Source of the DNA: an uncultured Acidobacteriota bacterium
GTDB taxonomy: Bacteria; Acidobacteriota; Thermoanaerobaculia; Multivoradales; UBA5704
Direction: 5' to 3'
Assembly: GCA_963770895.1 (NCBI GenBank)
Contig: CAVYRF010000001.1
Location: 704,481-768,480 of the forward strand
DNA: 64,000 nucleotides
Shown here piece by piece: positions 35,383 through 61,063 of this stretch (the stretch's first letter is position 1; every line of letters begins with the position of its first letter). The notes below the pieces were generated by a model that did no database searches, was not told the DNA's origin, and saw only the letters and a program-made list of their open reading frames with translations. The translations under genes and the position numbers were made by a program.

Positions 35383-35402
35383 GTGTGCCGCCGCCATGGG
35401 AA

Positions 35403-36812: not shown

Positions 36813-36819
36813 TCAAAGT

Positions 36820-37417: not shown

Positions 37418-37605
37418 TCGCCCAACCTGCCGCCGGCGTGGCTAGTGAGCCGCCTGTACCCGGCGGCCGCGGACAAGCCAGAGCTGGTCGAGGGCAGGCC
37501 CGGCGCCAGCGGTTTTGCTGGTACAGGTCCCTGGTGCCCCGGTCGTCGGGGCACCGGGCGCCCGGTGGGCGGGGTCGGCCGCGGGGCGGGGCCGGCGGCG
37601 CGGTT

Positions 37606-42537: not shown

Positions 42538-43721
42538 CGCTCGAAGCAATCGCGGACCAGGAGGCTACACCGCCTGCCGCCGCCGCCGCTGCCGGCGGGT
42601 CGCCTTCCGCCGCCGTCGCCGGTGGCGAGCCGCCACCCGGCGCTGCAGGAGACGCCGGGCGTCTGGCGTGGATGTGCGAGCGGCTGGCCGTTTGGGTGGT
42701 CGCCCCGCCGCCGCAGCCGCCGCCGGCGTGGCCGGCCGCGGCGTGGGAGGACTTTCGTGCCGCCACGCAGGTCCACGGCGTCGGCCCGCTGCTGGGGCGG
42801 CGCCTGGGCGACCGCCAGCCATGGTCGCAGGCGGCAGCCTGGCTTGGCGCCGAGCATGCCGCCAACCGCTTGCGCGTCGAGCGTCTGCACCAGGACTTGC
42901 GCGCGATCCTGGCGCGCTTTGCCGCCGCGGACGTGCCGCTCATGCCGCTCAAGGGCGCGGTGCTGGGGCCGCTCTATTATTCCGACCCCGCGGAGCGGCC
43001 AATGGCCGACCTGGACCTGCTGGTGCGCGCCGAAACGCTGGCGCAGAGCGCCCAGCTGCTGGTCGACATCGGCTATGAGGTGGTCTTTGAAGGCCGCAAA
43101 CACGTCAAGCTGGCGCCGCGCGGCGGCCGTCGCCGCCCGGTCAGCGACGCCGGCGGCGCCAGCGACGGCGACGTTGGCGCCGACGCCGGTGGTAGCCCCG
43201 GCCCCGGCCCCGGCGACCACGAGGCGGCCGGCGAGCACCCCGACAACCCGCGCTGGGTCGAGCTGCATCCGGCCTGCGGCGAATGGCTGGGGGACGAGCG
43301 CATCGATCTGACCGGCCCGATCTGGGCCGGCGCCCGCCGGCAGCCGCTGCTGGGCGAGCCGGCCTGGCTGCCCGACCCGGCGACCCATTGGCTCTACCTG
43401 TTGGTGCATGCCACCCACCACATCCTGATCAATCGCTTCCGTCTCATCCAGCTGCTCGACCTGCTGCTGCTTTGCCCGACGGACCTGTTGGGCGCCGCCC
43501 TCCAGGTCGAGCCGCCCGCCGCCGCGGCCGCCATGGCGCGCGCCCTGTACCCGCCTCTCGCGCTCCTCCAACGGTACTTCCCGGCGGGCGCCACCGCCGC
43601 CGCGACGGCCCTGCGCCAGGACTTGCGCGCGCGGCTGGCGCCCGGCTACGCGGCCTGGGCCGACGGCCTGGACCTGTTCCAGGCTTGCTATCTCGACGCC
43701 GCGCCGTGGAGGGCGCCATGA
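42534..43721 (+). CDS. uncharacterised nucleotidyltransferase family protein (PF14907-like)
   Basis: ATG 42534 overlaps the upstream stop (ATGA). VPLMPLKGAVLGPLYYSDPAERPMADLDLLVR and LYLLVHATHH resemble the NTP_transf_5 family signature as I remember it. Confidence 0.7.
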   Translation: MTLEAIADQEATPPAAAAAAGGSPSAAVAGGEPPPGAAGDAGRLAWMCERLAVWVVAPPPQPPPAWPAAAWEDFRAATQVHGVGPLLGRRLGDRQPWSQAAAWLGAEHAANRLRVERLHQDLRAILARFAAADVPLMPLKGAVLGPLYYSDPAERPMADLDLLVRAETLAQSAQLLVDIGYEVVFEGRKHVKLAPRGGRRRPVSDAGGASDGDVGADAGGSPGPGPGDHEAAGEHPDNPRWVELHPACGEWLGDERIDLTGPIWAGARRQPLLGEPAWLPDPATHWLYLLVHATHHILINRFRLIQLLDLLLLCPTDLLGAALQVEPPAAAAAMARALYPPLALLQRYFPAGATAAATALRQDLRARLAPGYAAWADGLDLFQACYLDAAPWRAP

Positions 43722-45148
43722 GCGAGCCTGGCGCCGTCAGCGAGCCGGGCACCGTCGGCGAGCAGGGTGCCGTCAGCGAGCCGGGCGCCGCCAGCGAGCC
43801 GGGCACCGTCAGCGAGCAGGGCGCCGTCAGCGGGCCGGGCGCGGTCAGAGCGCGGGGCGCCGTCAGTGGGCCGCGCGGCATGAGCGGTCAAGGCGCCATG
43901 AGCGAGCGCCCGGTGGTGGTGGTGGTGGGCGACGCCGTGGCGCCCACCGGCTTCGCGCGCGTGCTGCACAGCATTCTGGGGCGGCTCGCCGACCGTTACG
44001 AGTTCCATCACCTGGGGGTCAACTACGGCGGCCAGCCGCACGAGCACGCCTGGCAGATCTATCCCGCGGACGGCGGCGGCGACCTGCACGGCGTGCGGCG
44101 CGTGCGCGACCTGGTGGAAAAGGTGCGGCCCCGCCTCGTCTTCCTGCTCAACGACCCCTGGCTGATGGGCGGCTACCTCGACGCCTTGGGCGATTGCCGC
44201 GCCGGCATCAAGGTGATCGCCTACGCGCCGGTCGACGCCGGCCCGCTGGAGGCGGAGCTGGTGGCGCCGCTCACCGGCCTGGATCACCTGGTGCTCTATA
44301 CCCGCTACGGCCTGCAGGAAATGGAGGCGTCGGCGGCGCAGCTGCGCCGCCTGCGCCCCGACGCGGCCGCCTTCCCGGCGCTGTCGGTCGTGCCGCACGG
44401 CGTCGATTCGGACCTCTTCCGCCCGCTCGCCGGCCCGCCCACGGCGGCGGCGCCCGGCGACTTTGCCGCCTCCCGCGCCGCGGCGCGCCGCCAGCTGTTC
44501 GTCGACCCGGCGCTGCACGACGCCTGGATCGTCTTGAACGCCAACCGCAACCAGCCGCGCAAGCGCATCGACGCGACGATCAAGGGCTTCGCGCTCTTTG
44601 CGCGCGACAAGCCGCCCAACGTCCGCCTCTACCTGCACATGGGGATGGTCGATTGCGGCTGGAACGTGGTCGCCCTGGCGCGCCGTCACGGCATCGAAGA
44701 CCGGCTCATCCTGACCGCCGAGGAGCACTTCCTGCCGGCGGTCGCCGACGATCTGCTCAACCAGATCTACAACGCCTGCGACGTGGGCATCAACACCTCC
44801 CTGGGCGAGGGCTGGGGCCTGGTCAACCTGGAGCACGCCGCCACCGGCGCCGCCCAGGTGGTGCCCCGCCACAGCGCCTGCGCCGAGATCTGGGACGGCG
44901 CCGCCGAGCTCGTCGAGCCCGTCGCCAGCCTCACCATGGAAGGCCTGCTGACCGAAGGCCGCCTGGTCGGCCCCGAAGGGGTCGCCCGCGCCCTCGATCG
45001 CCTGTACACCGATCCCTCCCACCTGCGCCGGCTGTCCGCCGCCGCCTACCAGGTCGCCACCCGCCCCGAATACCGCTGGGACGACGTCGCCCGCCGCTGG
45101 GACGATCTCTTCCAGCAGATGCTGGCGGCCACCCCCACTGCCGTCTGA
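43718..45148 (+). CDS. GT1/GT4-family glycosyltransferase with repeat-encoded N-terminal extension
   Basis: ATG 43718 overlaps the upstream stop (ATGA); alternative in-frame ATGs are at 43880 and 43898. The catalytic part starts at ERPVVVVVGDAV, and the GT1 core includes NTSLGEGWGLVNLEHAATGAAQVV. Confidence 0.85.
   Translation: MSEPGAVSEPGTVGEQGAVSEPGAASEPGTVSEQGAVSGPGAVRARGAVSGPRGMSGQGAMSERPVVVVVGDAVAPTGFARVLHSILGRLADRYEFHHLGVNYGGQPHEHAWQIYPADGGGDLHGVRRVRDLVEKVRPRLVFLLNDPWLMGGYLDALGDCRAGIKVIAYAPVDAGPLEAELVAPLTGLDHLVLYTRYGLQEMEASAAQLRRLRPDAAAFPALSVVPHGVDSDLFRPLAGPPTAAAPGDFAASRAAARRQLFVDPALHDAWIVLNANRNQPRKRIDATIKGFALFARDKPPNVRLYLHMGMVDCGWNVVALARRHGIEDRLILTAEEHFLPAVADDLLNQIYNACDVGINTSLGEGWGLVNLEHAATGAAQVVPRHSACAEIWDGAAELVEPVASLTMEGLLTEGRLVGPEGVARALDRLYTDPSHLRRLSAAAYQVATRPEYRWDDVARRWDDLFQQMLAATPTAV
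43721..43900 (+). repeat. 18-bp in-frame tandem repeat x about 10 at the 5' end of the GT1 gene
   Basis: Units AGCGAGCCGGGCGCCGTC (SEPGAV and variants) run from 43721. The context GCGCCATGAGCGAGC occurs at both ends, at 43714-43728 and 43894-43908. Confidence 0.85.
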
Positions 45149-45283: not shown

Positions 45284-45589
45284 GTGGCGATTACGGTTGT
45301 CAATCAGTCGGTCGGTGCTCTGTCCTATACCGTGTTCGGCGGCTCGACTTCGGGTTCGGGCACGGGCGGGTCGGGCAGCAAGGGTTCGGGAACCACGGGC
45401 TCCGGTACCCACGGCTCGGGCGGCGGCTCGGGTGTCGTGGCTTCGGGCGTCGTCGGTCCGGGTGGCACCGCGTCCGGGATCCAGGTGGGTGCAGGCTCCT
45501 ATACCGTGGTCTTCGGGTGGAAAACCTTCCCCAGCTACACGGTTTCGGCCTCGGGTGTGGTCAAGGTGACGACGACCGTCCAGCCGTAG
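45284..45589 (+). CDS. 101-aa Gly/Ser/Thr-rich small protein (candidate modification substrate or scaffold)
   Basis: GTG 45284 lies 5 nt after GGAGG (45274-45278); an alternative TTG is at 45260. The sequence is VAITVVNQSVGALSYTVFGGSTSGSGTGGSGSKGSGTTGSGTHGSGGGSGVVASGVVGPGGTASGIQVGAGSYTVVFGWKTFPSYTVSASGVVKVTTTVQP. Codon third positions are less GC-biased than in the neighbours, and an AT-richer gap precedes it. Confidence 0.6.
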   Translation: MAITVVNQSVGALSYTVFGGSTSGSGTGGSGSKGSGTTGSGTHGSGGGSGVVASGVVGPGGTASGIQVGAGSYTVVFGWKTFPSYTVSASGVVKVTTTVQP

Positions 45590-45621: not shown

Positions 45622-46656
45622 GTGTCCAGACCTTCGCTGTTCGTCGTCTCGCTGCCGCGCTCTCTTTCGACGCTGCTCTACCACGCGATCCGCCAATCGC
45701 TGGCGTTGCGTGAGCCGCAGTGGACGACGGACGGGGAGATCCTCAACGTCCGTCGCTTTGCCTTTCTGGCGGAGGAGGGCGCGGTCGAGGGGGTGCGCTA
45801 CGTCCAGCGCGATCACGACGGGCCGCGCTTCGCGAAGCTCCTGGCCTTCCTCGACCAGGTGACCCAGGCTCAAGGCTTTGCCTACAAAGACGTCATCCAG
45901 CCCTTCGTCGTCGGCGAATGGCTGGCGCGCCAGAGCGCTCCGCCGGTGGGCGTGAACCGGCCCGCTGCAGCGGCCTCCTCCTCAGCCGCTGCCGAAGGCG
46001 CCACCGCCGCTGCGGCCGCCGCCGAGCGGCGCCGCTCGGCGTCATCGCCGAACAGCCCCGCACGCCCCACACCAGCGGCGCCAGCCCCCGCGGCCGTCTC
46101 TGCCTCCAGCGCTGCGGCACCCGCCCCGCGCGTCCTGGTCATCGACCGGCCGGTGCCTGACGTGGCCGCCTCGTTGCTCGATCGCGGCTGGCTGTATCCA
46201 GCGCTGGCCGCCGACGGCGCGGCGGCGCTTCCAGAGGCCGCGCGCGCGGTGGTCGCCGGTGCCCACACCGCCGACCTGTCGGCATTCCTCCCGCCCGACC
46301 AGGTGGAACGGGCGCTGGTGTCCGGCTTGCTGCGCGCCCGCCGGACCCTGGCCCGCCTGGCGGACCCGCCCCCGGCATGCGCCAGCCGGTGGGTGGTCTA
46401 CGACCAGCTGATCCACGACGAAGCGCCCTTGCATCAGGCCTTGCAGGCGCTCTACGGCGAAGACGTCCCGCCGCCCGCCTATCTGGACGACGAGTTCTGT
46501 CGCCAGCGCGATCAGGTGCTGCGCCGCCGCGCCAGCCCGCTCTACCAGCGCCTGCAGGCGCTCAGCGACGAGCTGGCGACCACGATGCTGGCCGCGCCGC
46601 CGGCCGCCGCCATCGGCGCCGGCGTCGCCGCGGCGCCACGGCGCCGCACGCAGTAG
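45622..46656 (+). CDS. sulfotransferase-like protein (tentative)
   Basis: GTG 45622 (or TTG 45604). The N-terminal FVVSLPRSLSTLLYH resembles the PAPS 5'-phosphosulfate-binding loop (LPRSGSTLL) of bacterial sulfotransferases, but with Gly replaced by Leu. An Ala/Ser/Pro low-complexity insertion lies at about 45960-46130. Confidence 0.45.
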   Translation: MSRPSLFVVSLPRSLSTLLYHAIRQSLALREPQWTTDGEILNVRRFAFLAEEGAVEGVRYVQRDHDGPRFAKLLAFLDQVTQAQGFAYKDVIQPFVVGEWLARQSAPPVGVNRPAAAASSSAAAEGATAAAAAAERRRSASSPNSPARPTPAAPAPAAVSASSAAAPAPRVLVIDRPVPDVAASLLDRGWLYPALAADGAAALPEAARAVVAGAHTADLSAFLPPDQVERALVSGLLRARRTLARLADPPPACASRWVVYDQLIHDEAPLHQALQALYGEDVPPPAYLDDEFCRQRDQVLRRRASPLYQRLQALSDELATTMLAAPPAAAIGAGVAAAPRRRTQ

Positions 46657-46680
46657 CCACCTGCAACACGCTCCGCTCAC

Positions 46681-46861
46681 CGCTCGCCTTCACGGCTCGC
46701 GGTTCGCCACCTGCCTCTTGCGGTTCGCCGCTCGCCCTTCACGGCCCGCGGTTCGCCACCCGCCTCTTGCGGTTCGCCGCTCGCCTTCACGGCTCGCGGT
46801 TCGCCACCCGCCGGTTGCGGTTCGCCGTTGCCGCGGCTCGCGGTTCGCCACCCGCCGGCGG
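46681..46861. repeat. 48/49-bp tandem repeat x about 3.7 in the convergent intergenic spacer
   Basis: Units run 46681-46728, 46729-46777 and 46778-46825, with a partial fourth unit to 46861. The word GCGGTTCGCC occurs 7 times. It lies between the stops at 46656 (+) and 46896 (-). Confidence 0.85.
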
Positions 46862-46895: not shown

Positions 46896-48320
46896 TCAGG
46901 ACAGGCGTTGTGCCGGGCGCAGGAAGTTGGCGACCTGCTTTTCGATCGGGGCGGCGTAAAAGTCGCGGTCGCAGCGCCAGCGGGCCAGCGCGCGCAGCGG
47001 CCGGCTCCAGGGTCGGCCGGAATCCCAGGCCAGCTGCTGGAAGAATTTGAAGCGCTCGATCAGCCGGTACTTTTCGGGCGACACCCACGGACCGATCGAG
47101 CCCACGAAGTCAAATTCGCTCCATTCGTCCAGCGTGCAGGGGAGGGTGAAGCCGGCGGCCACCGCGTTCTGGGTGATCGAGGTGCCGGGATAGGGTTTGA
47201 AATAGAAAATCGGCGTCTGGAAGTCGGGGCTCATGGCGCGCAGCCGCTTGACCACCTGCAGGGTGGCGCGCACGTTGTCCTCGGTCTCTTCCGGGAAGCC
47301 GACGATGAAGGGGAAGTTGACCGCCACGCCGAACTTGCGACAGCGCTCGGCGACAAAAAAGACCTGCTCCAGCTTGATGTCTTTTTTGATGCGATCCATC
47401 ATTTCCTGCGAGCCCGATTCGACGCCGACCAGCAGGCGGCGCAGCCCCGAGCGCTTGCACTTGGCGAAGACCTCTTCGCTCATGCGCTGGCCCTGGTCGG
47501 CGCGCATGGTGGCGGCCCAGGTGATGGGGAGCTTGCGGCGGATGAGCTCTTCGGCGACCGCTTCGACGCGCTGGGCGTAGGTGAAAAAGGTTTCGTCCTG
47601 GAAGTTCACGTCGTCGTAGCGCGAGCGGTGCCACAGCGCTTCGAGCTCTTCGCCCATGCGCTCGGGCGACAGGCCGGTCCACTTGCGCTGGTAGACGAAC
47701 GGATCGGCGCAAAAGGCGCAGCGGAAAGCGCACCCCTGCGACGAGATGTAATCCAGCTGGCGCTTGCCCTTGAGGCGATAGTACGGTTCGATGTCGATCA
47801 GGCCGTAGTTGTGGACCGCCAGGGTGTTGACGTCGGCCAGCGGGCGGGCCGTGTTCACCTGCGCGGCGCCGTCCTCGCGGTAGGTGCAACCCTGGCAGCC
47901 GGTCAGTGGCCGCCCTTCAGCCAGGCGCTCGACGATCTCGGCAAAGGTGATTTCCCCCTGGCCTTGCACGGTCACGTCGACGCTCGGTTCCGCCAGGCAT
48001 TCGCGGCCGAACATCGACGGGTGCCAGCCGCCCCAGACGACCGGCAGGTCGGCGCGGCTGGCCTTGGCGGCGCGGCTGGCCGCAACCGCGTCGGCGATCG
48101 GCGCCCCGGTGAGCACCGTGACGCCCAGGCAGAGCGCGCCTTCCAGCTCCGCCACCAGGGCGCGGTGTGCCGCTTCGGGGTTTTTGGCCAACCGGGCGTC
48201 CACGACCACCACCTGGTAGCGCTCGGGATCGAGGTGCGATCCGATGGTGAGCAGCGCCAGCGGCATGGTGTAAAAGACCGCGGTCGGGTTGTACAGCACG
48301 ATTTTGTGGCGGCGACTCAT
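46896..48320 (-). CDS. class B radical SAM enzyme, copy 2 (paralogue of 39224..40816)
   Basis: 474 aa from ATG 48320, overlapping the upstream stop (ATGA). Signature lines are IVLYNP...PLALLTIGS and GCAFRCAFC. Confidence 0.9.
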   Translation of the reverse strand: MSRRHKIVLYNPTAVFYTMPLALLTIGSHLDPERYQVVVVDARLAKNPEAAHRALVAELEGALCLGVTVLTGAPIADAVAASRAAKASRADLPVVWGGWHPSMFGRECLAEPSVDVTVQGQGEITFAEIVERLAEGRPLTGCQGCTYREDGAAQVNTARPLADVNTLAVHNYGLIDIEPYYRLKGKRQLDYISSQGCAFRCAFCADPFVYQRKWTGLSPERMGEELEALWHRSRYDDVNFQDETFFTYAQRVEAVAEELIRRKLPITWAATMRADQGQRMSEEVFAKCKRSGLRRLLVGVESGSQEMMDRIKKDIKLEQVFFVAERCRKFGVAVNFPFIVGFPEETEDNVRATLQVVKRLRAMSPDFQTPIFYFKPYPGTSITQNAVAAGFTLPCTLDEWSEFDFVGSIGPWVSPEKYRLIERFKFFQQLAWDSGRPWSRPLRALARWRCDRDFYAAPIEKQVANFLRPAQRLS

Positions 48321-49399
48321 AAGGGCTCCGGGGTCAATGCCAGCGTGCAGACGCATTTGCGACAGATCGCATCGCGGTCGGTGTCCAGGCCGCGGCGCCA
48401 GGCGAGCGCCTGCGGCGAATTGACGATCGCGTCCAGGCTTGCCGCCTGCCGCAGGTTGCCGAGCGGCGGCTGGAAGAAGCACGGCCGCACCGTGCCGTCG
48501 GCTTCGATCACCGTCGACACCCACGGCGCGTTGCAGCGATGCGGCGGAAAATCGCCGTGGCCGCACAGTGCGGCGTAGTAGTCGTAGAGCCGCGCCCGCA
48601 GCTTCGCCGCGCCCTCGACGATGAAGCCGGATGCGAAGTCGGCCGCGTGCTCGCGTTCCAGGGCGTCCAGCTCGCCGGCCAGCCGCGGCAGCTCCTCTTC
48701 GAGCAGCGCCACCTGGCCGGCGCGCGCCGCTTCCCAGGGCTGCGGCCGGTTGAAGGCGTCGCTGCTGACGTCGGCGGCCAGCAGGCTCAACCAGTTCAGG
48801 CCGATCGCGCGGGCCGCCGTGACGGTGCCGCGCAGGTGGGCGAAGTTGGCCCGCTGGACGGTGCAGCGCCCGCCGATCGTCAGCTGAGGCGCGGCTTGGC
48901 GCACCGCCGCCACCCCGTCGGCCAGCTTGGCGAAAGCGCGCGGCAGGTTGCGGATGTGATCGTGCACGGGCTGCGGCCCGTCCAGGCTGACGATCACTTC
49001 GGAGCAGTAGGCGGCGACCTGGGTCGCGTCGCGCCGCAGCAGCAGACCGGTGGACAGCAGGGTGATCGCGATGCCGGCGCGCCGCAGGTGCTCGCACATC
49101 TCCCACAGGTTGCGGTGCAGCAGCGCTTCGCCGCCCGACAGCGCGACCTGGCGCACCCCCATGCGCTGCCATTCGGCAACCCACTGTGCCACCTCGGCCG
49201 CGCCCAGCTCCTGCTTGCCCGGATCGCGCCAGATGTCGCACATCAGGCAGCGGCAGTTGCAGCGGCTGTGCGGGAACAGGATGACGATCGGCAGCCGCTC
49301 GACCGGTTGGGGCCGCGGCAACCCGTCGGCCGCCCCGCCGCTCCACGCGTTGGCCGGCAGCTCGGCGGCCGGCAGCACCGGAAGCACGGTCGAGCTCAC
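48317..49399 (-). CDS. radical SAM enzyme with Cys-rich SPASM/twitch-like C-terminal domain
   Basis: 360 aa from GTG 49399, overlapping the upstream stop (GTGA). It has RCNCRCLMCDIW (CxxxCxxC). The C-terminus has CNAPW...CFF...ICRKCVC. Confidence 0.85.
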   Translation of the reverse strand: MSSTVLPVLPAAELPANAWSGGAADGLPRPQPVERLPIVILFPHSRCNCRCLMCDIWRDPGKQELGAAEVAQWVAEWQRMGVRQVALSGGEALLHRNLWEMCEHLRRAGIAITLLSTGLLLRRDATQVAAYCSEVIVSLDGPQPVHDHIRNLPRAFAKLADGVAAVRQAAPQLTIGGRCTVQRANFAHLRGTVTAARAIGLNWLSLLAADVSSDAFNRPQPWEAARAGQVALLEEELPRLAGELDALEREHAADFASGFIVEGAAKLRARLYDYYAALCGHGDFPPHRCNAPWVSTVIEADGTVRPCFFQPPLGNLRQAASLDAIVNSPQALAWRRGLDTDRDAICRKCVCTLALTPEPL

Positions 49400-50385
49400 C
49401 GCCGCTCCAACTCCAGCAGGTAATGGTCGGCCAGCCAGGGCAGCGGCGGCCAGGTTTCGGCACGCCGCTCCCAGCGCCCGAGCAGACGCAGCAGGCGCGG
49501 GTGGCGCGCCGCCCAGCCTTCGGCGTAGGTGGGCGGCAGCAGCGCGCCGACCGCCGCGCGCCGGCGCAGGCGGAAGGCGGGACCGAACAGGCGCCGCAGC
49601 GCGCCGACCGACGGATAGCGGATGGTCAGGCCGCGCCAGCGCGTGCCGCCCGGCCGCAGCCGGCGAAAGGCGCGCCCCGGCTGCGCGTGGCCCAGGTACC
49701 AGGCCCACTCCCACGGCACCAGCGGGCCCATCACGCAAACGACCGCCATGGCGCCCGGCCGCAGGTTTGCCGCCAGCCAGCCCGCCAGCTGCCGCAGGTC
49801 GGCTGGCGCCACGCAGTTGAGGCCGCCGAAGTTGGACAGCACCCCGTCGAACGGCCGCGGCGCCGCCGGTGTGGCGCCGGCAGCAGGTGCGGCAGCGGGT
49901 ACAGGCGCGGTGGCGAGTACAGACGCGACCGCGGGCATAGGCGCAGCGGCGGGTACAGACGCGGGCGCGGGTGCCGGGTCCGCCGGCGGTGATTGCTGGG
50001 GGTGCCAGGGTTGCCGGGGCTGCCGGGTCAGCTGTTCGATGGTCTGGTGGCGCAGATCGACCCGATCGCCCAGGCCGGCGCTCGCGATCTTGTCGCCGGC
50101 GCGTTCCAGCATGCCGGCGGCGGCGTCGATGGCGGTGACGCGCACGCCGCGGCGAGCCAGGTACAGGGCGTCTTCGCCGGTGCCGCAGTTGAGCTCCAGC
50201 ACGTGGCTGCCGGGGGCGAAGCAGGCGTCCAGCCGCCGCCAGACCGCCTGGCGCATCTGCGTGCCGATGGCGCTGCCGGTGAAGCTGGCGTCGTAGGACG
50301 CGGCCATGCGGTCGAACGCGGTGGCACCCGTGGCGTCGCCATCGCGGCGCGCCGGCAGCACGGGGAGGACGGCCGGTTCGGTCAT
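49396..50385 (-). CDS. class I SAM-dependent methyltransferase (paralogue of 16980..17810)
   Basis: 329 aa from ATG 50385. Motif I is VLELNCGTGEDALYLA. There is a Pro/Ala-rich insertion at about 49850-50000, and the gene ends LELERR. Confidence 0.8.
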   Translation of the reverse strand: MTEPAVLPVLPARRDGDATGATAFDRMAASYDASFTGSAIGTQMRQAVWRRLDACFAPGSHVLELNCGTGEDALYLARRGVRVTAIDAAAGMLERAGDKIASAGLGDRVDLRHQTIEQLTRQPRQPWHPQQSPPADPAPAPASVPAAAPMPAVASVLATAPVPAAAPAAGATPAAPRPFDGVLSNFGGLNCVAPADLRQLAGWLAANLRPGAMAVVCVMGPLVPWEWAWYLGHAQPGRAFRRLRPGGTRWRGLTIRYPSVGALRRLFGPAFRLRRRAAVGALLPPTYAEGWAARHPRLLRLLGRWERRAETWPPLPWLADHYLLELERR

Positions 50386-50387
50386 CG

Positions 50388-51785
50388 TCACGGCGCCGCC
50401 GGCGACTCCTCGGGCCAGGAGAGCAGCGCCTGGTGCGCCGCTTCCGCCATCTGCAGCTTTTCGGCGGCGTCCGCCGGGTTGTCGGACTGCAGGCGGGCGG
50501 CGGCGACGCTGTTGCGCAGCCACCGGTCGGCCTGTTCGTAGTAGGCGCGCGAGCGCTGGCCGCGCAGCCGGTAGTCGCGGTCGGTGGCGGTATCCCAGCT
50601 CTTGTCGAGCTGCACGCGGTCGGCCACCTGGCGGAAGTAGGCGGTGTTCTTGATCGGGTAGGCGACGGTGGTGAAGAAGATGTTGGGGTTGGCCTTTTTG
50701 ACGTGCTCGACGGTGGCTTCGATGTCGGCCAGCGTTTCGCCCTGGTAGCCCCACATCAGGAACATGCCGACTTCGATGCCGTGGCGCTGGGCGGCGTGGG
50801 TCGCCCACTGCACCTGCTCGGCGGTGACGCCCCGATCCATGGCGTCCAGGATGCGCTGGCTGCCGCTTTCAGAGCCGATCCAGATGCGGTAGCAGCCCAT
50901 TTCGGCGAGCGTCGCGATCACTTCGTCCTTGAGCAGCCGATCGGCGCGCGAAATGGTTTCGAAAGGGCGCACCAAGCCGCGCTTCTTGAGCAGGCCGGCG
51001 AACTCGAAGAGCCAGCGGTGGTGGATGGTGAACACGTCGTCGGCGTACCACAGCTGTTCGGGCTGGTAGGCTTCGACGATGTGCGCCACTTCGTCGGCGC
51101 AGTCGAGCGCGCTGCGCCGGCGATGGGTGTAGCCGAACACGGCGTGCGAGCACCATTTGCAGCGATACGGGCAGCCGCGCGCGGTGATCAGGTTGACGCT
51201 GCCCATGCCGTGGTGGGTGTGCCAAACGTCGACGTAGCGGGCGATGTCGATCTGCTCGCGATCGGGCCAGGGGAGGCTGTCCAGGTCGGCGATCTGTTCG
51301 CGGTCCGGATTGGTGACGACCTCCCCTTCTTCGTCGCGGAAGACCGTGCCGTGCAGGCCGTGCAGACGGTGCGGACCGCGCAGGGCGAGCGCCGGCAGCA
51401 GTTCCGCGAGCGTCGCTTCGCCTTCGCCCACCACCACGACGTCGGCGCCGTGGGCCAGGTATTCGGCCGGGTAGTTGGCCGATTCGGGGCCGCCGAGCAC
51501 CACCGTCCAGCCGTGCTGCCGCGCGGCGGCGATGATGGCGAGGATCGACGCGCGGGTCATCAGGTTGGTGTAGATCCCCACCACGCCGCCGGGAGTGGCG
51601 GCAAGGCGCTGGCGCAGCGCGGCGCGCTCGGCGAACGTGGAATCGAAGATCTCGACGCTGAAACCGGCGCGACGCAGATACGAAGAGATGTAGAGCAGCC
51701 CCAGCGTCGGGTAGGGCTTCATGATCTGCAGCTCTTTGGGATCTTCGTGCAGGAAGTAGCCGTGGGTCAGCAGGATGTCGGCCAT
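50388..51785 (-). CDS. class B radical SAM enzyme, copy 3
   Basis: 465-aa ORF. Signature lines are MADILLTHGYFLHEDPKELQIMKPYPTLGLLYISSYL and GCPYRCKWC. It is a paralogue of the upstream gene. Confidence 0.9.
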   Translation of the reverse strand: MADILLTHGYFLHEDPKELQIMKPYPTLGLLYISSYLRRAGFSVEIFDSTFAERAALRQRLAATPGGVVGIYTNLMTRASILAIIAAARQHGWTVVLGGPESANYPAEYLAHGADVVVVGEGEATLAELLPALALRGPHRLHGLHGTVFRDEEGEVVTNPDREQIADLDSLPWPDREQIDIARYVDVWHTHHGMGSVNLITARGCPYRCKWCSHAVFGYTHRRRSALDCADEVAHIVEAYQPEQLWYADDVFTIHHRWLFEFAGLLKKRGLVRPFETISRADRLLKDEVIATLAEMGCYRIWIGSESGSQRILDAMDRGVTAEQVQWATHAAQRHGIEVGMFLMWGYQGETLADIEATVEHVKKANPNIFFTTVAYPIKNTAYFRQVADRVQLDKSWDTATDRDYRLRGQRSRAYYEQADRWLRNSVAAARLQSDNPADAAEKLQMAEAAHQALLSWPEESPAAP

Positions 51786-51786
51786 A

Positions 51787-53367
51787 TCAGTTCCAGCTCT
51801 TGCTCAGGTCGGGCATCGCCGGCGTCGTGTAATCTTTTCGAATCGCCGTCGGCCGTTCGCTGCGGCTGCACGCTTCAAGCCGCCCCAGCTCCAGCCAGGC
51901 GCTGCACAGCTGATCCAGCTCCTGCCGGATCTCCGCATCGGACGCGCCGTCTACAGCCGCAGGCGCGCCGGCGGCGGCGTTTGCAGGCAGGGCGGGCGGG
52001 GCAGGGGCAGCGCCCCGGGACCTGTCGCGCAGGCGCTGGCGGACCAGCAGATCGCGGTGCAGCAGGCGATGCAGGTGGCGATAGAAAGGCGTCTGATAGG
52101 TGCCCTGAAACATCATCGCCAGGTCGTTGCTGTCCTGCCAATGATCCTGCCCGTTGAGCTGGGCCTTGACCATCTCATGGAAGCGCGTGCCGGGCAGCGG
52201 GTAGCTGACGCTGATGCCGATCTCGTCGGGCAGCGTGTCGCGCACCAGCTGCACCGTCTGCTCGATGTCTTCAAAGGTTTCACCGGCGTAGCCGAACTGC
52301 AGGAAATAGCAGGCGCGGATGCCGGCGTCGCGCAGACGCTCGCGCACCACCGGGATCTGGCGCGCGTCGGTGCCCTTGTCCATGGCGTCCAGGATCTTCT
52401 GGCTGCCGCTTTCGACCCCCAGCCAGACCTCGTGGCAGCCGGCCTTGGCCAGGCCGGCCACGGCTTTTTCCGTCATGAGGTCGATGCGCGACTGGATCTT
52501 GAACGGGATCGAGCCGTCGAGCGCCGTCACCCGGTCGGCAAATTCGGCGACCCAGCGCGGCTGCAGGCCGAAGATGTCGTCGGCAAACCAGATCAGGTCG
52601 GGCTTCAGGCTGCGCTTCAGCAGCGCCATCTCTTCGGCCACGCTGGCCGGCGAGCGCATGGCGTAGCGCTGCCCCCAGATCGGTTTTGCGCACCAGTTGC
52701 AGTGGAAGGGGCAGCCGCGGGTGCTCACCATGTTGAGGCTGAAGTAGCCGTGGGCGCCGCGCCAGGCATTGCGGTAGCGTTCCACGTCGAGCAGGTCCCA
52801 GGCCGGCAGCGGAAAGACGTCGGGGTGGCGCTCGACGGCGCGCGAGCAGGTGCGCTGCACCCCGTCCGGCGCCGCCGGATCGGGGATCGCGAGGCCGGCC
52901 ACTTCGTTCACGCACCGGCCGTTGGCGCGGCCGGCAAGGATGTCGACCAGCTCGCCCAGGGTGTGATCGGCTTCGCCGGCCAGCACGTATTGCACGCCCT
53001 CGCGGAAGTACACCTCGGGATGATCGGACGCGTCGGAGCCGGCGGCGATCACCGTGGCGCCGGCGGCGCGCGCGTGCCGGCTCATGTTGCAGCCGGCGCG
53101 GCGGCTGTGCGCCAGACACATCTTATTGAGAAAGTTGAATTGATCTTCGTAAAGGGCGACGATAGCCGGTTGCGTTTCGGCCAGGAGCCGTTCGAACTCC
53201 TCTTCGCCATCGGCCAGCATGGCGTCGAACAGCGCCACCGAATAGCCGCGCCGCCGCAGTTCGCTGGCCGCGTACAGCGTGCCGAGCGGCGCGTAGGGCG
53301 ACATCTTTTCGATCTGCTTCGGATCATTCTTCAGAAAGAACGAATGGGCGAGGAGGATGTCGGTCAT
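51787..53367 (-). CDS. class B radical SAM enzyme, copy 4
   Basis: 526-aa ORF. Signature lines are MTDILLAHSFFLKNDPKQIEKMSPYAPLGTLYAASEL and GCPFHCNWC. This is the first gene of the minus-strand operon, with a 1-nt gap to the next gene. Confidence 0.9.
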   Translation of the reverse strand: MTDILLAHSFFLKNDPKQIEKMSPYAPLGTLYAASELRRRGYSVALFDAMLADGEEEFERLLAETQPAIVALYEDQFNFLNKMCLAHSRRAGCNMSRHARAAGATVIAAGSDASDHPEVYFREGVQYVLAGEADHTLGELVDILAGRANGRCVNEVAGLAIPDPAAPDGVQRTCSRAVERHPDVFPLPAWDLLDVERYRNAWRGAHGYFSLNMVSTRGCPFHCNWCAKPIWGQRYAMRSPASVAEEMALLKRSLKPDLIWFADDIFGLQPRWVAEFADRVTALDGSIPFKIQSRIDLMTEKAVAGLAKAGCHEVWLGVESGSQKILDAMDKGTDARQIPVVRERLRDAGIRACYFLQFGYAGETFEDIEQTVQLVRDTLPDEIGISVSYPLPGTRFHEMVKAQLNGQDHWQDSNDLAMMFQGTYQTPFYRHLHRLLHRDLLVRQRLRDRSRGAAPAPPALPANAAAGAPAAVDGASDAEIRQELDQLCSAWLELGRLEACSRSERPTAIRKDYTTPAMPDLSKSWN

Positions 53368-53474: not shown

Positions 53475-53503
53475 AGAATACTTCTATCCTGCACGGTCGT
53501 CAA
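53475..53503 (-). promoter_or_regulatory. putative sigma70-type promoter of the radical SAM operon
   Basis: On the minus strand: TTGACG (complement of 53498-53503), a 17-nt spacer, then TATTCT (complement of 53475-53480). It sits in the AT-richest part of the 286-nt upstream region, about 108 nt before ATG 53367. Pattern match only. Confidence 0.3.
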
Positions 53504-53653: not shown

Positions 53654-54916
53654 TCAGGGTGAAGGCGGCGTGCCGGCGGCGGCGCTCAGCGGCAGAAAGC
53701 GCGGCTCCGACACGACGCCCTTGTCGACGTTGCGCAGCACCAGCCCGGAGCCGCCGGCGGTGGCGGCACAGCCGGACAGCAAGACCCAGCTGTCCGCGGC
53801 CGGCACCAGCACCTGCGTCACCGGCAGGCGCTCGCCGTTTTTCGACACCACGTCGGCAGGCGCCTGGGCGACCTGCGCCCACGCGCCGTGCGGGTTCAGG
53901 CGTGTCAACACCACCTGTTCGGCGGCCGGCGAGCGGCGGTCGTACCACACCATCTGCAGGGCCCCGCGGCGATCGGCAAGCGGCAGGTCGATGCCGTACT
54001 CGGTGCCCTGCCGCCACATGCCGGTGGTGTCGCCGCCGCCCCACGGCGTCCAGGCGGAGCGCCGCCAGCTCTTGCCCAGGTCGGACGACAGGTAAGCCAC
54101 GCCGTCGGCCGAGATGTACGCGGCGTCGTTGCCGCCCAGGGCCAGGATCTGGCCGCGCCGGTCTGCTGTCACGCCCGGCAGCCCCTTGACCCAGGTTTCG
54201 GGCGGCGCGCCGGCGCTGAACAGGCCGGTGCCCGAGACCACGCCGTCCGCCTGCTGCGGCGCCGGCGTCACCTGCGGCTGGCCGACCGCCGTCACCTCCA
54301 GGCCGCCGTGCGATTTCCACTCGCGCCCTTCCAGGCGGTAGGCCCACGCCTGGTAGAGGCCCGGCTTGGTGCCCGCGGCATGCGCCATCAGCCACGGGGC
54401 GCCGCCCTCGTCATAGGTGCCGGCCAGGGTGGCCCCCGCCGGCAGGGTCACCGCTTCGCCGAGCGGCTGCCAGCCGCCGTGGTCCCAGCGCACCGGCTGC
54501 ACGCATTGCGCGCCGCAGGGCTCGACCGCGACCACCGGCCCCGGCCCGATCGAGCCGCCGTAGCGGCCGGAGGGGCGCTCGGGAAACGCTCGCGCTTCGT
54601 GCCCGCTGCCGTCCAGCTGCACCGTCCAGCCGCCGCTGCCGCCGCTGTCGCCGTTGTCGTCGGTCAGCGAGAACAGCATCAGGCCCGAGCGGGTGTCCAT
54701 GCCGATCAGCGTCAACGCCGACGCGGCGTCGCACGCCGGTCCGCCGCCCGCGGCATTGCCGGCGCGCCCTTGCACACGCTCGGGGGGCGGCGCCGCTGCC
54801 AGGCGGGGCGCGCCGGCCAGCAGCGCGGTCATCGCGACGATCAGCAGCGCCGCCGGGGCAGTGGTGAAGAGCGCCGCGGTAGCGGCGGGGCGTGAGATCG
54901 CGGCGCTTCGTTTCAT
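53654..54916 (-). CDS. secreted BNR/Asp-box (sialidase-like beta-propeller) protein
   Basis: 420 aa from ATG 54916, overlapping the upstream stop (ATGA). The signal-like N-terminus is MKRSAAISRPAATAALFTTAPAALLIVAMTALLAGA. It has an Asp-box-like SSDLGKSW. Confidence 0.6.
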   Translation of the reverse strand: MKRSAAISRPAATAALFTTAPAALLIVAMTALLAGAPRLAAAPPPERVQGRAGNAAGGGPACDAASALTLIGMDTRSGLMLFSLTDDNGDSGGSGGWTVQLDGSGHEARAFPERPSGRYGGSIGPGPVVAVEPCGAQCVQPVRWDHGGWQPLGEAVTLPAGATLAGTYDEGGAPWLMAHAAGTKPGLYQAWAYRLEGREWKSHGGLEVTAVGQPQVTPAPQQADGVVSGTGLFSAGAPPETWVKGLPGVTADRRGQILALGGNDAAYISADGVAYLSSDLGKSWRRSAWTPWGGGDTTGMWRQGTEYGIDLPLADRRGALQMVWYDRRSPAAEQVVLTRLNPHGAWAQVAQAPADVVSKNGERLPVTQVLVPAADSWVLLSGCAATAGGSGLVLRNVDKGVVSEPRFLPLSAAAGTPPSP

Positions 54917-55953
54917 CTTGAGGTCTCCCGGCCGCCTGGGCCGCCTGAATGATTGGGCTGCTGAGCCATCCCCACCCGCACCGGCCGCGCCGGCACGCCC
55001 GCCACCGTGACGCCGGCGGCCACGTCGTCCACCACCACGGCGCCGGCGGCGACCGTCGCATCGTCGCCGACGTGGACGCCGCCCAACACCAGCGCGCCGG
55101 CGCCGATGGTGACCCGGTCGCCGACCCGCGGGTAGTCCAGCTCGTCGAAACGGGCTTCCCCCAGCGTGACGCCGTGCAGCAGCGTGCAATCCTGTCCGAT
55201 CACCGTGTAGCCGCCGATCACCAGGCCGACGCCATGGGCGATGATGCAGCCGCCGCCGATCTGGGCGCGCGGCAGGATGTCGACGCCGCAGGCGCCGATC
55301 GCCCAGCGGCGGCAGGCCGCGGGCAGCGCCGGCACCCGCCACCGCAGCAGTGTATGCGCCATCCGGTAGGCCAGCAGCGCCTGAAACCCGGAATCGAACA
55401 CCAGGGCATCCAGCAAGGCCACCAGGAAGCTACGCCCCTTGACTTGGCGCAGCCGATGAAAATCTCGTGCCAGCGGCTGCCAGAACCGGGCCGCCGCCAG
55501 CCGGGGCGGTGGTGTCGTCGTGCCTCGCCGCACTCCCGTTGGGCGGTTGTCGGCCGCGGCTGGATCGCTCCCCGTCGGTGCGGGCTCGACCGCCGCGGGT
55601 GCGGGTTCGACCGCCGTGGGTGTGGGCTCGACCGCCGTGGGTGCGGGTTCGACCGCCGCGGGTGCGGGCTCGACCGCCGCGGGTGTGGGCTCGACCGCCG
55701 GGGGTGCGGGTTCGACCGCCGTGGGTGCGGGTTCGACCGCCGCGGGTGTGGGCTCGACCGCCGGGGGTGGGGAAGGCCGCGGTGCGGCGCCGGACGGCGT
55801 CGTGTCGAGCGCCTCCGGCCGGCGCGCCGGTTCGGCGCCGGCAGGCGCCGCCCCTGGACCGGATCGCCCGGCTTCCGTGGGTGCCTCAGGTGGGTTGTCC
55901 CGCGCTGACGGCTGACCGGCCGGCCCGGTGGCGTTTGGGTCGGCGGCGCTCAT
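54913..55953 (-). CDS. serine-O-acetyltransferase-like hexapeptide-repeat acyltransferase with repeat-rich N-terminus
   Basis: 346 aa from ATG 55953. The C-terminal part GGCIIAHGVGLVIGGYTVIGQDCTLLHGVTLG...RVGDRVTIGAGALVLGGVHVGDDATVAAGAVV is a left-handed beta-helix. Confidence 0.8.
   Translation of the reverse strand: MSAADPNATGPAGQPSARDNPPEAPTEAGRSGPGAAPAGAEPARRPEALDTTPSGAAPRPSPPPAVEPTPAAVEPAPTAVEPAPPAVEPTPAAVEPAPAAVEPAPTAVEPTPTAVEPAPAAVEPAPTGSDPAAADNRPTGVRRGTTTPPPRLAAARFWQPLARDFHRLRQVKGRSFLVALLDALVFDSGFQALLAYRMAHTLLRWRVPALPAACRRWAIGACGVDILPRAQIGGGCIIAHGVGLVIGGYTVIGQDCTLLHGVTLGEARFDELDYPRVGDRVTIGAGALVLGGVHVGDDATVAAGAVVVDDVAAGVTVAGVPARPVRVGMAQQPNHSGGPGGRETSR
55578..55766 (-). repeat. 21-bp in-frame tandem repeat x 9 (AVEPxPx) in the acetyltransferase gene
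   Basis: Plus-strand units GTGYGGGYTCGACCGCCGNGG run from 55578 with a period of exactly 21 nt. They encode AVEPTPA, AVEPAPT and similar heptads. Confidence 0.85.
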
Positions 55954-56831
55954 CGGGGATCTCCGGCGGCTGGCCGATGGCGGCCGGGGGCGGGCCGCGC
56001 GCGGCGGCGCAGGGCGCGCAGCAGGCCCAGGCGGGGCAGGCGGCTCCACCAGGGGTAGGCGCCGCTCGCCTTGAGCAGCAGCTCGAAGCGGCTGTCGCCG
56101 GGGTTGACGGCGAAGCGGGGTACTGCAAATGGATCGCCGGCGCGGCTGGATGCGCCGGCGTGGGCAGTGGCGGCGGTGGCGGCGGTGGCGACAATACCGT
56201 GGATGGCGGCGGCGGCCAGGTAGCCGGCGGCGGCCACGGCGGCGCGGGTGCGGGAGTTGTAGGCGCCGTAGGGGTAGCAGAAGGTGGCGACCGGTTGGCC
56301 GACCGCCGCCGCCAGGTCCTCGCGCGAACCGGCGATCTCGGCGGCCAGGCCGGCTTCGTCGCAGGTGGTCAGGTCGCGATGGTGCCGGCTGTGCGAGCCG
56401 ATCTCGATGCCGGCCGCGGCCAGCCGGCGCAGCGCCGCCGCGTCCAGCAGCTCTTCGCGGCGCTCGGCCGGTCCCCGCGGCGGCCGGTCCCAGGCGTTGG
56501 TGCCGCCCAGCTCGCCGCTGACCGCGAACAACGTTGCAGTCATGCCGCGTGCGGCCAGCGCCGGCGCCGCGTGGTCGCGGAAGCAGCGGCAGCCGTCGTC
56601 GAAGGTGAGCACCACCGGCCGCCGCGGCAGCGGCCGCCCGTCGCGCTGCCGCGCCATGGCGTCCGCCAGCGTCAGCGTCGTGCAGCCGCGCGCGGCCAGG
56701 GCGTCCAGCGCCGCGTCGAACTGCCCCTGCGCCAGGTAGCTGTCGGGGTGCATCGGCGGCGGTTCCAGCTCGCCCGCCGGCACCGCCTCGACATGGTGAA
56801 ACATCAGCACCGGCAGCACCCGACGGATCAT
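55950..56831 (-). CDS. polysaccharide deacetylase (NodB homology domain)
   Basis: 293 aa from ATG 56831. Signature lines are VVLTFDDGCR and IGSHSRHH. There are ATGA overlaps at both ends. Confidence 0.85.
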   Translation of the reverse strand: MIRRVLPVLMFHHVEAVPAGELEPPPMHPDSYLAQGQFDAALDALAARGCTTLTLADAMARQRDGRPLPRRPVVLTFDDGCRCFRDHAAPALAARGMTATLFAVSGELGGTNAWDRPPRGPAERREELLDAAALRRLAAAGIEIGSHSRHHRDLTTCDEAGLAAEIAGSREDLAAAVGQPVATFCYPYGAYNSRTRAAVAAAGYLAAAAIHGIVATAATAATAHAGASSRAGDPFAVPRFAVNPGDSRFELLLKASGAYPWWSRLPRLGLLRALRRRARPAPGRHRPAAGDPR

Positions 56832-60066: not shown

Positions 60067-60172
60067 TGTGTCACCACCGGCCGCGCGCTTGGCACCCAGC
60101 GCCGCCGCCCGGCGCCGCCAGCGGTGGCGATCCGCCGTCGCCACCCTCGCCGCCGGCGCGCGGCGCGCTGGT

Positions 60173-61063
60173 TCACGGCTCCGGCCAGCTGGCCAGGATG
60201 GCGCGGTACCAGGCCAGCCGGAAGGCGGCGACCGCCGGCAGCGACCGCCAGCAGGGGAGCAGCATCGGGTGGCGAAGAAAGATCGACGCGGCGCCGATCC
60301 ACGCCTTGAGCGGCGCCGCCAGGCGCAGGCGGCGGCGGGTCGCCCAGGTGGCGCCGGTGGCGAAGGCGCCGGGGTGGCGGGCCAGGAACTCCCGGAAGTG
60401 CCGGCCGTACCAGGCGGCGTGCCCTTCGAGATCGCGGCGGCTGGCGCGCACGGCGGCGTGCTCGACGACGGCGCCGGGCACGAAGGCGGTGGCCAGGCCG
60501 GCGGCGCGGGCGCGCAGCACCCAATCGTGGTCTTCGCTGGTCGGCAGCGCTTCGTCGAACGGCCCGACGCGCTCCCAGGCGTCGCGGCGGACCGCCAGGT
60601 TGAGGCTGCCCAGCGGGCGCCGCGTGTCGGCCTCCGCCGGGCGGTCGGGCAGCAGCGGGTGAAACGAGGCGATGTTGTCGGCCAGCGCCCAGCGCGCGGC
60701 GCCGCGGCGGGCGTCGCGTCCGCGGGCGAAGGTGACGGCGCCGCCGGCGATCGGCGCGCCGGCCAGCGCCGCCGCCAGCTCGCTCACCCAGCCGGCGGCG
60801 GGGCGGCAGTCCGCGTCGGTGAACAGCAGCAGGTCGCCGCGCGCCGCCACGACGCCGCGGTTGCGCGCCGCCGCCGGGTTGAGCCGCTCCGGCGTTTCGA
60901 CGAAGCGCACCGCCCCGTCGCGCGGCACCGCCCCCGGCGCGTCGCGCCCCACCACCACCACCTCCACCCCCTGGCCCGGCGCCCCCTGCGCGGCGAGCGC
61001 CGCGAGGGTCGCGCCGACCAGCGGCGAATCCAGGTTGGGCACCACGACGCTGATCAGGGGCAT
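60173..61063 (-). CDS. GT2-family glycosyltransferase
   Basis: 296-aa ORF. Signature lines are ISVVVPNLDS, NRGVVAARGDLLLFTDADC (DxD) and SEDHDWVLR. Confidence 0.85.
   Translation of the reverse strand: MPLISVVVPNLDSPLVGATLAALAAQGAPGQGVEVVVVGRDAPGAVPRDGAVRFVETPERLNPAAARNRGVVAARGDLLLFTDADCRPAAGWVSELAAALAGAPIAGGAVTFARGRDARRGAARWALADNIASFHPLLPDRPAEADTRRPLGSLNLAVRRDAWERVGPFDEALPTSEDHDWVLRARAAGLATAFVPGAVVEHAAVRASRRDLEGHAAWYGRHFREFLARHPGAFATGATWATRRRLRLAAPLKAWIGAASIFLRHPMLLPCWRSLPAVAAFRLAWYRAILASWPEP

Follow-up and report, generated by a model that had tools for sequence, protein, structure and literature searches.

What substrate could a set of closely packed radical S-adenosylmethionine (SAM) enzymes share? 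The question is raised by an operon at 46896-53367 on the minus strand of a 64,000-nucleotide stretch of DNA from an uncultured member of the Acidobacteriota (contig CAVYRF010000001.1, positions 704,481 to 768,480 of the forward strand; hereafter the window). It consists of five genes, which we call G1 to G5 in the order of transcription. Three of them, together with a gene U in a convergent partner operon, encode class B radical SAM enzymes, which carry a B12-binding domain. Such enzymes carry out alkylations that are among the hardest in biology, and the substrates of most of them are unassigned. We found that G1-G5 makes up the "radical" half of a modular cassette present in hundreds of species, mainly of the Acidobacteriota, a group of soil bacteria both abundant and little understood. 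Inferring both substrate class and chemistry, we tentatively read the cassette as a system for radical tailoring, with C-methylation probably the predicted chemistry, of a glycan or glycoconjugate that yields a sugar-containing envelope product. We regard this reading as possible rather than probable.

Because the G+C content of the window is so high (69-78%), genes were called by third-position GC bias, and five open reading frames (ORFs) with high third-position GC occupy the operon. Their four junctions, namely TGAtATG (a 1-nt gap), TGAcgATG (a 2-nt gap), GTGA, and ATGA, are as given in a preliminary description of this DNA, and G1-G5 form a single translationally coupled operon. By itself, this junction pattern is ordinary translational coupling, and the partner operon likewise has four 4-nt overlaps. 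The arrangement goes beyond chance because the identical gene order returns in several phyla. No intrinsic terminator was found on the G1-G5 strand. Earlier, this had been called a five-gene radical SAM operon in which all members have a single CxxxCxxC motif. The operon is real and four of its genes encode radical SAM proteins, each with that motif, but G3 is a class I SAM-dependent methyltransferase (Pfam Methyltransf_25, 50.1 bits vs. a cut-off of 27) and has no CxxxCxxC.

G1, G2, G5, and U all matched both Radical_SAM (59.3, 67.2, 75, and 45.6 bits, respectively) and the B12-binding domain PF02310 (35.1, 56.8, 41.9, and 50.2 bits; cut-off 32.1) in Pfam. The one CxxxCxxC motif in each of them (CPFHCNWC at residue 219 in G1) was invariant among 52-81 orthologues, and the orthologue alignments showed no conserved additional Cys cluster in these B12-type enzymes. 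By BLASTP, G1 paired with G2 (34% identity, E 1e-81) and G5 with U (27% identity, E 1e-51), compared to 17-27% identity and E 1e-5 to 1e-26 for the cross pairs. BLASTP and Pfam therefore bear out the proposed pattern of two class B subfamilies, each present twice, plus a SPASM-type enzyme; U is the earlier "copy 1," and the N-termini quoted at that time were located in G2 and G1. However, since G1, G2, the G5-type, and the U-type each form an orthogroup of their own across phyla, the duplications are, as judged from sequence, ancient, which corrects the original picture of duplication.

None of these proteins could be assigned to a known family. No protein of the cassette reached a curated NCBIfam cut-off. 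We tested the class B proteins against BchE, HpnJ, HpnR, PhpK, MgmA, BzaD, ApyD, the C-methylases of ribosomally synthesised and post-translationally modified peptides (RiPPs), the ladderane-lipid radical SAM enzyme, and TIGR04295. Their best scores were 81-127 bits vs. cut-offs of 251-775 (HpnJ, BchE, PhpK, ApyD, and the ladderane-lipid enzyme), with HpnJ the best match of both G1 (98 bits vs. 578) and G5. The "BchE cyclase" label that homologues carry at JGI is generic, because scores stay so far under the cut-offs. PDB sequence matches of the class B proteins were all remote (MgmA [9ccb], CysS, AprD4, OxsB, TokK, and TsrM), the best being the protein methylase MgmA for G2 and AprD4 for G5 (54 bits). 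With all NCBIfam scores below cut-off and no close PDB entry, a known orthologue for the cassette proteins was rejected, and by NCBIfam none of the four class B proteins is orthologous to an enzyme of a known pathway.

The cobalamin-binding fold appears to have been kept. An AlphaFold (AF2) model of G2 (predicted local distance difference test [pLDDT] score 87, predicted template modelling [pTM] score 0.86) has a Rossmann-like N-domain followed by a radical SAM barrel, and because the model keeps both, it speaks against loss of the B12-domain fold. Its top Foldseek matches, MgmA, AprD4 (TMq 0.72), TsrM, CysS, and OxsB, aligned over the full length. AprD4 shares this fold but is not known to use cobalamin, and class B members also carry out cyclisation and ring contraction; methylation is a plausible chemistry for the four enzymes. 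There were no cobalamin genes in the 64-kb window, Rfam matched no riboswitch or other RNA in the window or in four loci, and a plasmid collection held no homologue above 28% identity.

The other radical SAM protein, G4, matched Radical_SAM (52.3 bits) and SPASM (PF13186; 41.6 bits vs. a cut-off of 21.5). The extra Cys motifs that had been noticed in it (CNAPW, CFF, and CRKCVC) are present and invariant across 48 orthologues, which all keep Cys 47, 51, 54, 289, 307, 346, 349, and 351, with C179 kept in 90%; the conserved extra Cys of G4 number 5-7. Its C-terminus reads CX12GX4C and then CX2CXC, with the protein ending 9 residues on, compared to the full seven-Cys SPASM motif for two auxiliary clusters (CX9-15GX4C ... 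CX2CX5CX3C ... C). Because C289, C307, C346, C349, and C351 are kept, along with C179, G4 likely binds one auxiliary [4Fe-4S] cluster and perhaps part of a second, the latter being uncertain. The best NCBIfam match of G4 was PTO1314 (69 bits vs. 306), and its matches to BlsE (the best in PDB), SkfB, and the AhbD model (50.7 bits; cut-off 500) covered the radical SAM core only.

G3 came after G2 in 69 of 83 loci, and its best NCBIfam match was CpaM (61 bits vs. a cut-off of 180). It has a Pro/Ala-rich insertion of ~70 residues (~49800-50030, with 18-bp and 36-bp repeats at 49884-49972) that interrupts the Pfam methyltransferase match and is missing from orthologues such as the 259-residue protein of locus L081. 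G3 and G4 also share seven identical residues, VLPVLPA, near their N-termini (49379-49399 and 50350-50370). We rejected this likeness as a local coincidence because the stretch is not kept among G3 orthologues.

To follow the cassette across genomes, we scanned one genome per species and obtained 341 tblastn-confirmed stretches encoding a relative of G2, the best 80 of which showed 58-76% identity in that scan. In the 80 loci examined, which span at least five phyla, G2 orthologues were 58-82% identical. Most of the loci belonged to the Acidobacteriota (Terriglobia including Candidatus Angelobacter, Thermoanaerobaculia, Holophagales, and Bryobacteraceae), and others to Chloroflexota, Armatimonadota, Alpha- and Gammaproteobacteria, Actinomycetota, and Candidatus Entotheonella. 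In databases, the relatives of G2 number thousands, and the top 120 are 69-98% identical; among these 120, the named ones come from Thermoanaerobaculia and Roseiflexaceae, and the closest named are proteins from metagenome-assembled genomes (MAGs) of Thermoanaerobaculia (77-80%). Orthologues of G1 were found in 68 loci (47-76% identical), of the U-type in 51, and of G4 and the G5-type in 44 each.

Three units recurred, whether together, interleaved, or apart: G1-G2-G3; G4-G5; and a unit of an N-methyltransferase, U, and a kinase-like protein, which in the window also has a PF14907 nucleotidyltransferase and a glycosyltransferase (GT). G4 and G5 were adjacent in L003, L012, L019, L027, L031, L081, and L082. 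The units were interleaved in L081, L005, and L014, which argues that they serve one pathway. Reduced forms also occurred: G1-G2(-G3) alone in several Acidobacteriota and Chloroflexota, G1-G2-G3 in the Entotheonella genome, and the bare G2-G3 pair in two loci (L033 and L039; Sphingomonas sp. JC676 and one actinomycete MAG). This modularity offers a simple experimental entry: Sphingomonas sp. JC676, which is in culture, has G2-G3 only, and Altererythrobacter segetis YJ20 has G1-G2-U.

Two further features of these loci were observed. In some Acidobacteriota, giant genes flank G1-G2 (L015 3788-7927 and 12393-19385; L021 11405-19891); one encodes 1380 residues with ten CarboxypepD_reg repeats, and others encode 2330-2830 residues without a clear Pfam domain. 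In Terriglobia (L048, L065, L070, and others; ~6640-6950), the intergenic DNA between divergent U-type and G5-type genes is conserved and surfaced as clusters of pseudo-ORFs, and L073 had no match in Rfam.

The partner operon converges on G1-G5 from the plus strand, with 4-nt overlaps at each junction of its first five genes and two further genes behind them (Table 1). Its first protein, MTS, scored 86.3 bits against the HemK2/MTQ2 family of protein Gln methyltransferases (cut-off 87), its consensus over 16 aligned orthologues keeps NPPF, and its best PDB match was the gentamicin N-methyltransferase GenN (54.7 bits). The kinase-like protein stayed below cut-off for Hpr_kinase_C (18.5 bits) and reached ~20-31 bits on HprK_rel_A/B and ScmC vs. 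cut-offs of 125-200; its homologues carry PF27840, and its C-domain was found in 18 loci. In an AF2 model of a compact homologue (P0139; pLDDT 85), the top Foldseek match was the ATP-dependent phosphoenolpyruvate carboxykinase ATP-PEPCK (TMq 0.53). The model resembles the two-domain ATP-PEPCK more closely than HprK/P, and it contains no domain like the RiPP recognition element (RRE), its N-domain matching PEPCK in fold. X45 had no match in Pfam or NCBIfam.

Table 1. Coordinates of the operon, its partner operon, and nearby glycan-type genes in the window, with the small gene as found in other loci.
Feature	Position	Strand	Description
G1	51787-53367	minus	526 aa; class B radical SAM (B12-binding domain); first gene of the operon; paralogue of G2
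G2	50388-51785	minus	465 aa; class B radical SAM; best-conserved member of the cassette
G3	49396-50385	minus	329 aa; class I SAM-dependent methyltransferase, not radical SAM
G4	48317-49399	minus	360 aa; radical SAM with shortened SPASM/twitch-type C-terminal Cys domain
G5	46896-48320	minus	474 aa; class B radical SAM; paralogue of U
Promoter-like site	53475-53503	minus	TTGACG-17-TATTCT, ~108 nt upstream of the G1 start codon; consensus match only
MTS	38469-39227	plus	NPPF-motif N-methyltransferase (HemK/GenN-like); first gene of the partner operon; Pfam MTS 58.6 bits
U	39224-40816	plus	fourth class B radical SAM; ATGA overlap with MTS
Kinase-like protein	40813-42537	plus	P-loop protein, PEPCK/HprK fold; Pfam ScmC family
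PF14907 (NTP_transf_5)	42534-43721	plus	nucleotidyltransferase-like; Pfam 108.5 bits; ATGA overlaps at both ends
Glycosyltransferase	43718-45148	plus	GT1/GT4-type; Glyco_trans_1_4 32 bits, Glycos_transf_1 31 bits; position kept in L082-L086
Small protein	45284-45589	plus	101 aa; Ser/Gly/Thr-rich; strong Shine-Dalgarno
X45	45622-46656	plus	conserved protein; last gene of the partner operon
Hexapeptide acyltransferase	54913-56049
GT4	56828-58363
Wzx flippase	58537-60144
GT2	60173-61063
Small gene in other loci	L082 16458-16712; L083 13585-13845; L084 13769-14083; L085 10001-10273; L086 10001-10300

The neighbourhood of the cassette is what points to a glycan. In the window, three GT genes, a Wzx flippase gene, and a hexapeptide acyltransferase gene lie within or near the two operons. 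Among Terriglobia, the neighbours were Wzx, PF14907, and a methyltransferase, or two GT4 genes, with Wzx in 14 of 35 loci; they were two GT4 genes in Armatimonadota and GT2-methyltransferase-GT2 fusions in Bryobacteraceae, and in L081 a GT2 gene lies within the cassette. BLAST placed a GT or Wzx gene within 10 kb in half of the loci (36 of 72). PF14907 was present in 28 of 35 Terriglobia loci and in 7 of 37 others, and the kinase-like protein in 16 of those 37. Of 119 sampled flanking ORFs, 17 had GT domains and 13 were further methyltransferases, and no peptide-processing or lipid-coupling family recurred among them. Moreover, the nearest solved relatives of MTS, G4, and G5 (GenN, BlsE, and AprD4) act on sugars, a DedA/VTT protein adjoins the partner module where it stands alone (L085 and L086), and the modelled kinase-like homologue appears PEPCK-like rather than equipped with a peptide-binding RRE.

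We therefore propose the following scheme, in which the product would be a lipid-linked glycan or glycoconjugate of the envelope. The kinase-like protein, the nucleotidyltransferase, and the GTs would build or attach the sugar part, and the class I methyltransferases would methylate N or O. The class B enzymes would methylate unactivated carbons, a 5'-deoxyadenosyl radical taking the hydrogen and methyl-cobalamin donating the methyl group, on the model of GenK/GenD1 acting on aminoglycoside sugars or of CysS extending a methoxy group. G4 might add a further radical step, for example oxidation, decarboxylation, or cross-linking, and the Wzx-type flippase would export the product. If this is true, the cassette would represent novel polysaccharide chemistry. 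That its members would also be the first class B radical SAM enzymes to act on a Wzx-exported glycan is a somewhat doubtful extension.

Several observations weigh against a glycan substrate. The matches to sugar enzymes are all distant, at 40-127 bits far short of the family cut-offs, and fall largely in shared cores; in about half of the loci, neither a GT nor a Wzx gene lies within 10 kb. Among the scanned proteins, we recognised no initiating phosphoglycosyl transferase, Wzy, chain-length regulator, or OPX protein, although no dedicated search was made for them. The best structural match of G2 is a protein methylase, and in this lineage the partner operon contains a gene for a small conserved protein. 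To our knowledge, the only characterised role of pairs of HprK-like and PF14907 proteins is lasso-peptide tailoring. That the class B enzymes bind cobalamin and transfer methyl groups is a prediction from sequence and model, and AprD4, which has the same fold, is not known to use cobalamin. Lastly, the loci with only G1-G2(-G3) or G2-G3 lie beside uvrA, rpoA/secY, MetRS, or giant surface proteins, and such uninformative contexts fit a substrate that is not cluster-specific.

These reduced loci also bear on an alternative in which the product is a small diffusible metabolite that derives from some ubiquitous compound (SAM, a nucleotide, a cofactor, or a metalloid), as in the two-gene ArsL/ArsM or PhpK-type systems, and the glycan genes are mere neighbours in some lineages. 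A stand-alone minimal G2-G3 pair in Sphingomonas sp. JC676 and an actinomycete MAG would suit it, as would the very strong conservation of G2 and the TonB-dependent receptor that follows the partner module in L085 and L086. There were also weak matches to the PhpK, Sden_1168, and ArsL families and, among methyltransferases, to ArsM- and TehB-like ones, but all of them fall far short of the cut-offs and do not exceed the matches to other class B families. Nor does this alternative account for why GT, Wzx, and PF14907 genes are repeatedly interleaved with the cassette in distant phyla, and we consider it decidedly improbable.

The small gene of the partner operon raises another possibility, namely that the cassette modifies a ribosomal product, which in this lineage would be the 101-residue protein. 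Its GTG start lies 5 nt downstream of a Shine-Dalgarno sequence (GGAGAGGAGG). The family comprises 51 sequence clusters of 82-120 residues with conserved ends (MAITIVNQSVG..Y... and ...SYTVVFGW..FPSY.VSASG) and a middle (GSGx)n of variable length, and it had no match in Pfam or PDB. The gene invariably sits between a GT gene and an X45-type gene (222-344 residues), and in L082-L086 it keeps this fixed place, with X45 homologues of 222-248 residues coming after it. The whole partner-operon order recurs in L082, L083, and L084. In L085 and L086, the partner operon occurs alone, with no G1-G5 within 10 kb, and is followed by the TonB-dependent receptor and DedA/VTT genes; the small gene thus accompanies the partner module even without G1-G5. 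In this lineage, the small protein could serve the partner operon as substrate or scaffold.

Under such a scheme, the HprK-like protein would phosphorylate Ser or Thr, PF14907 and the GT would add nucleotidyl or glycosyl groups, the NPPF methyltransferase would N-methylate side chains, and the class B enzymes would C-methylate as in polytheonamides or MCR. Lasso-peptide kinases with PF14907 enzymes provide a precedent. The near-threshold HemK2/MTQ2 score of MTS with its conserved NPPF, the match of G2 to MgmA, and a score of 121 bits for G5 on the RiPP enzyme ApyD are in line with this. However, no member of the small family turned up in any of the 80 genome loci from other lineages, and a composition scan for small Ser/Thr/Gly-rich ORFs found only the window's own. 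Nor did a precursor peptide shared across phyla emerge: when small ORFs were clustered, the groups were only shadow ORFs or, within Terriglobia, conserved non-coding DNA, and no small ORF was conserved across phyla. Pfam scans of the window and flanks revealed no RRE/PqqD-like domain, leader protease, or dedicated peptide exporter. The cassette enzymes are also far more conserved than RiPP maturases usually are, and the Wzx flippases are hard to account for. We consider a protein or peptide substrate unlikely, and the heavily C-methylated peptide of the preliminary description finds no support in the gene context, given the lack of a cross-phylum precursor, RRE, protease, or RiPP exporter. If the small protein is the substrate, it would be a modified protein of a novel kind.

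The concentration of the cassette in Acidobacteriota (Terriglobia, Thermoanaerobaculia, Holophagales, and Bryobacteraceae) brings membrane lipids into consideration. Here the cassette would methylate, cyclise, or bridge the membrane-spanning lipids of these bacteria, such as iso-diabolic acid and branched glycerol dialkyl glycerol tetraethers (brGDGTs), and if true this would bear on the origin of the brGDGT palaeoclimate proxies. Class B pairs with a SPASM enzyme mirror the archaeal GDGT-modifying cluster (PMC11214058, PMC13459092), G1-G2-G3 units in contexts without an encoded substrate would be expected for a common lipid, and GT4 enzymes and flippases also serve glycolipids. Yet, tes/mss-type radical SAM, ether-lipid, and fatty-acid genes were not recurrent in the flanks, and Sphingomonadales, Actinomycetes, and Chloroflexota carry the cassette as well. 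G4 misses the published criteria for Gms, with its 360 residues, 50.7 bits on AhbD, and no tes/mss nearby. Lipid tailoring is improbable on this evidence, and the branched or bridged lipid suggested at first is left unsupported, there being no tes/mss or ether-lipid genes. A more specific version, with G1/G2 as position-specific chain methylases, G5/U as Grs-like ring synthases, and G4 as the bridging enzyme, all of them the long-sought enzymes behind the brGDGTs of Acidobacteria, is highly improbable.

Other features of the window were also recorded. A gene for a 4114-residue non-ribosomal peptide synthetase (NRPS; 22104-34448, plus strand) has three adenylation, four condensation, and four carrier domains and a terminal thioesterase. 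A link between it and the cassette was rejected, as Usp, Nramp, glyoxalase, and DtxR genes intervene and the NRPS is absent from related loci. In the regions 34780-38271 of the window, 4580-7293 of L083, and 6795-7460 of L084, a gene for a DtxR/MntR-type metal repressor is found upstream of the partner operon and divergent from it, with Nramp and Usp genes beyond it in the window and L083, and this neighbourhood hints at metal-dependent regulation. Further genes at 1268-13359 and 19222-20043 encode a hybrid histidine kinase, a KaiC-like ATPase, a GT9 heptosyltransferase-like protein, two PhyH dioxygenases, an FkbM-methyltransferase/GT4 fusion, and a PEP-mutase-family protein.

Tandem repeats were found at several points. 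A 48-bp repeat (3.8 copies, 90% matches) lies at 46680-46856 between the convergent genes X45 and G5 and is local only, its 18-mer core having no other occurrence in the window. An 81-bp repeat at 41365-41701 (4.2 copies, 89% matches) encodes Ala/Thr/Ser/Gly-rich repeats of 27 residues in the linker of the kinase-like protein, where orthologues have other low-complexity inserts (QESIQESIQE in L081) or none (331-residue forms). In-frame repeats also occur at the 5' end of the partner operon's GT gene (18 bp x 9, 43711-43877) and within the hexapeptide-transferase ORF (21 bp x 9, 55577-55769).

We found no published description of the cassette in the literature on brGDGTs, B12 radical SAM enzymes, Acidobacteria, glycans, or PF14907. 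The enzyme superfamilies are well known; the gene set, the range of phyla that carry it, its repeated occurrence beside glycan genes, and the small-protein family appear to be new. Among known systems, the gentamicin and aminoglycoside set (GenN, the class B C-methylases GenD1 and GenK, AprD4, a BtrN/BlsE-type radical SAM enzyme, and GT4) is similar in having an N-methyltransferase directly upstream of a class B gene and several class B, twitch/SPASM, and GT4 genes per locus. GenN, AprD4, and BlsE are also the best PDB sequence matches of MTS, G5, and G4, at only 40-55 bits. By contrast, the cassette has Wzx flippase, PF14907, and HprK-like genes, and it is spread across phyla, unlike antibiotic clusters confined to actinomycetes. 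The window proteins include neither 2-deoxy-scyllo-inosose synthase nor sugar aminotransferases, and the same holds for the 25 most frequent families of the 119 flanking ORFs.

The archaeal set of Gms (SPASM/twitch) with GrsA/GrsB and Gmm (class B) resembles the cassette in that a SPASM-type gene is clustered with class B paralogues and kept with them as a set. Gms is homologous to AhbD (36% identity) and has at least 400 residues, with an N-terminal extension of ~100 residues, and bacterial gms clusters with tes/mss (PMC11214058). Compared by these published criteria, G4 is shorter, has no N-terminal extension, and is not AhbD-like, and unlike the archaeal GDGT genes the cassette has class I methyltransferase, GT, and PF14907 partners and no tes/mss neighbours. 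The proteusin (polytheonamide) enzymes PoyB/PoyC and PoyE likewise combine multiple class B enzymes with an N-methyltransferase, and an Entotheonella genome carries G1-G2-G3. However, the cassette is without an NHLP-type precursor, epimerase, or protease, no precursor is shared across phyla, and its proteins scored 55-72 bits on the RiPP C-methylase family vs. a cut-off of 282.

The uncharacterised HprK-related kinase or SynChlorMet (ScmC) cassettes and the pairs of HprK-like kinase and PF14907 genes in lasso peptide clusters resemble ours in the succession of a P-loop HprK-related protein and a PF14907 protein, but here PqqD/RRE, lasso cyclase, and leader peptidase are absent, and our kinase-like model is of the two-domain PEPCK-like form. 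CysF/CysS, which build O-alkyl groups in cystobactamids, work in a carrier-protein or NRPS context that is not conserved around the cassette. Still, they offer the same pairing of a class I methyltransferase with a class B gene that G2-G3 shows even as an isolated pair, and CysS, at ~20% identity, ranks with the closest matches of G2 in both sequence and fold.

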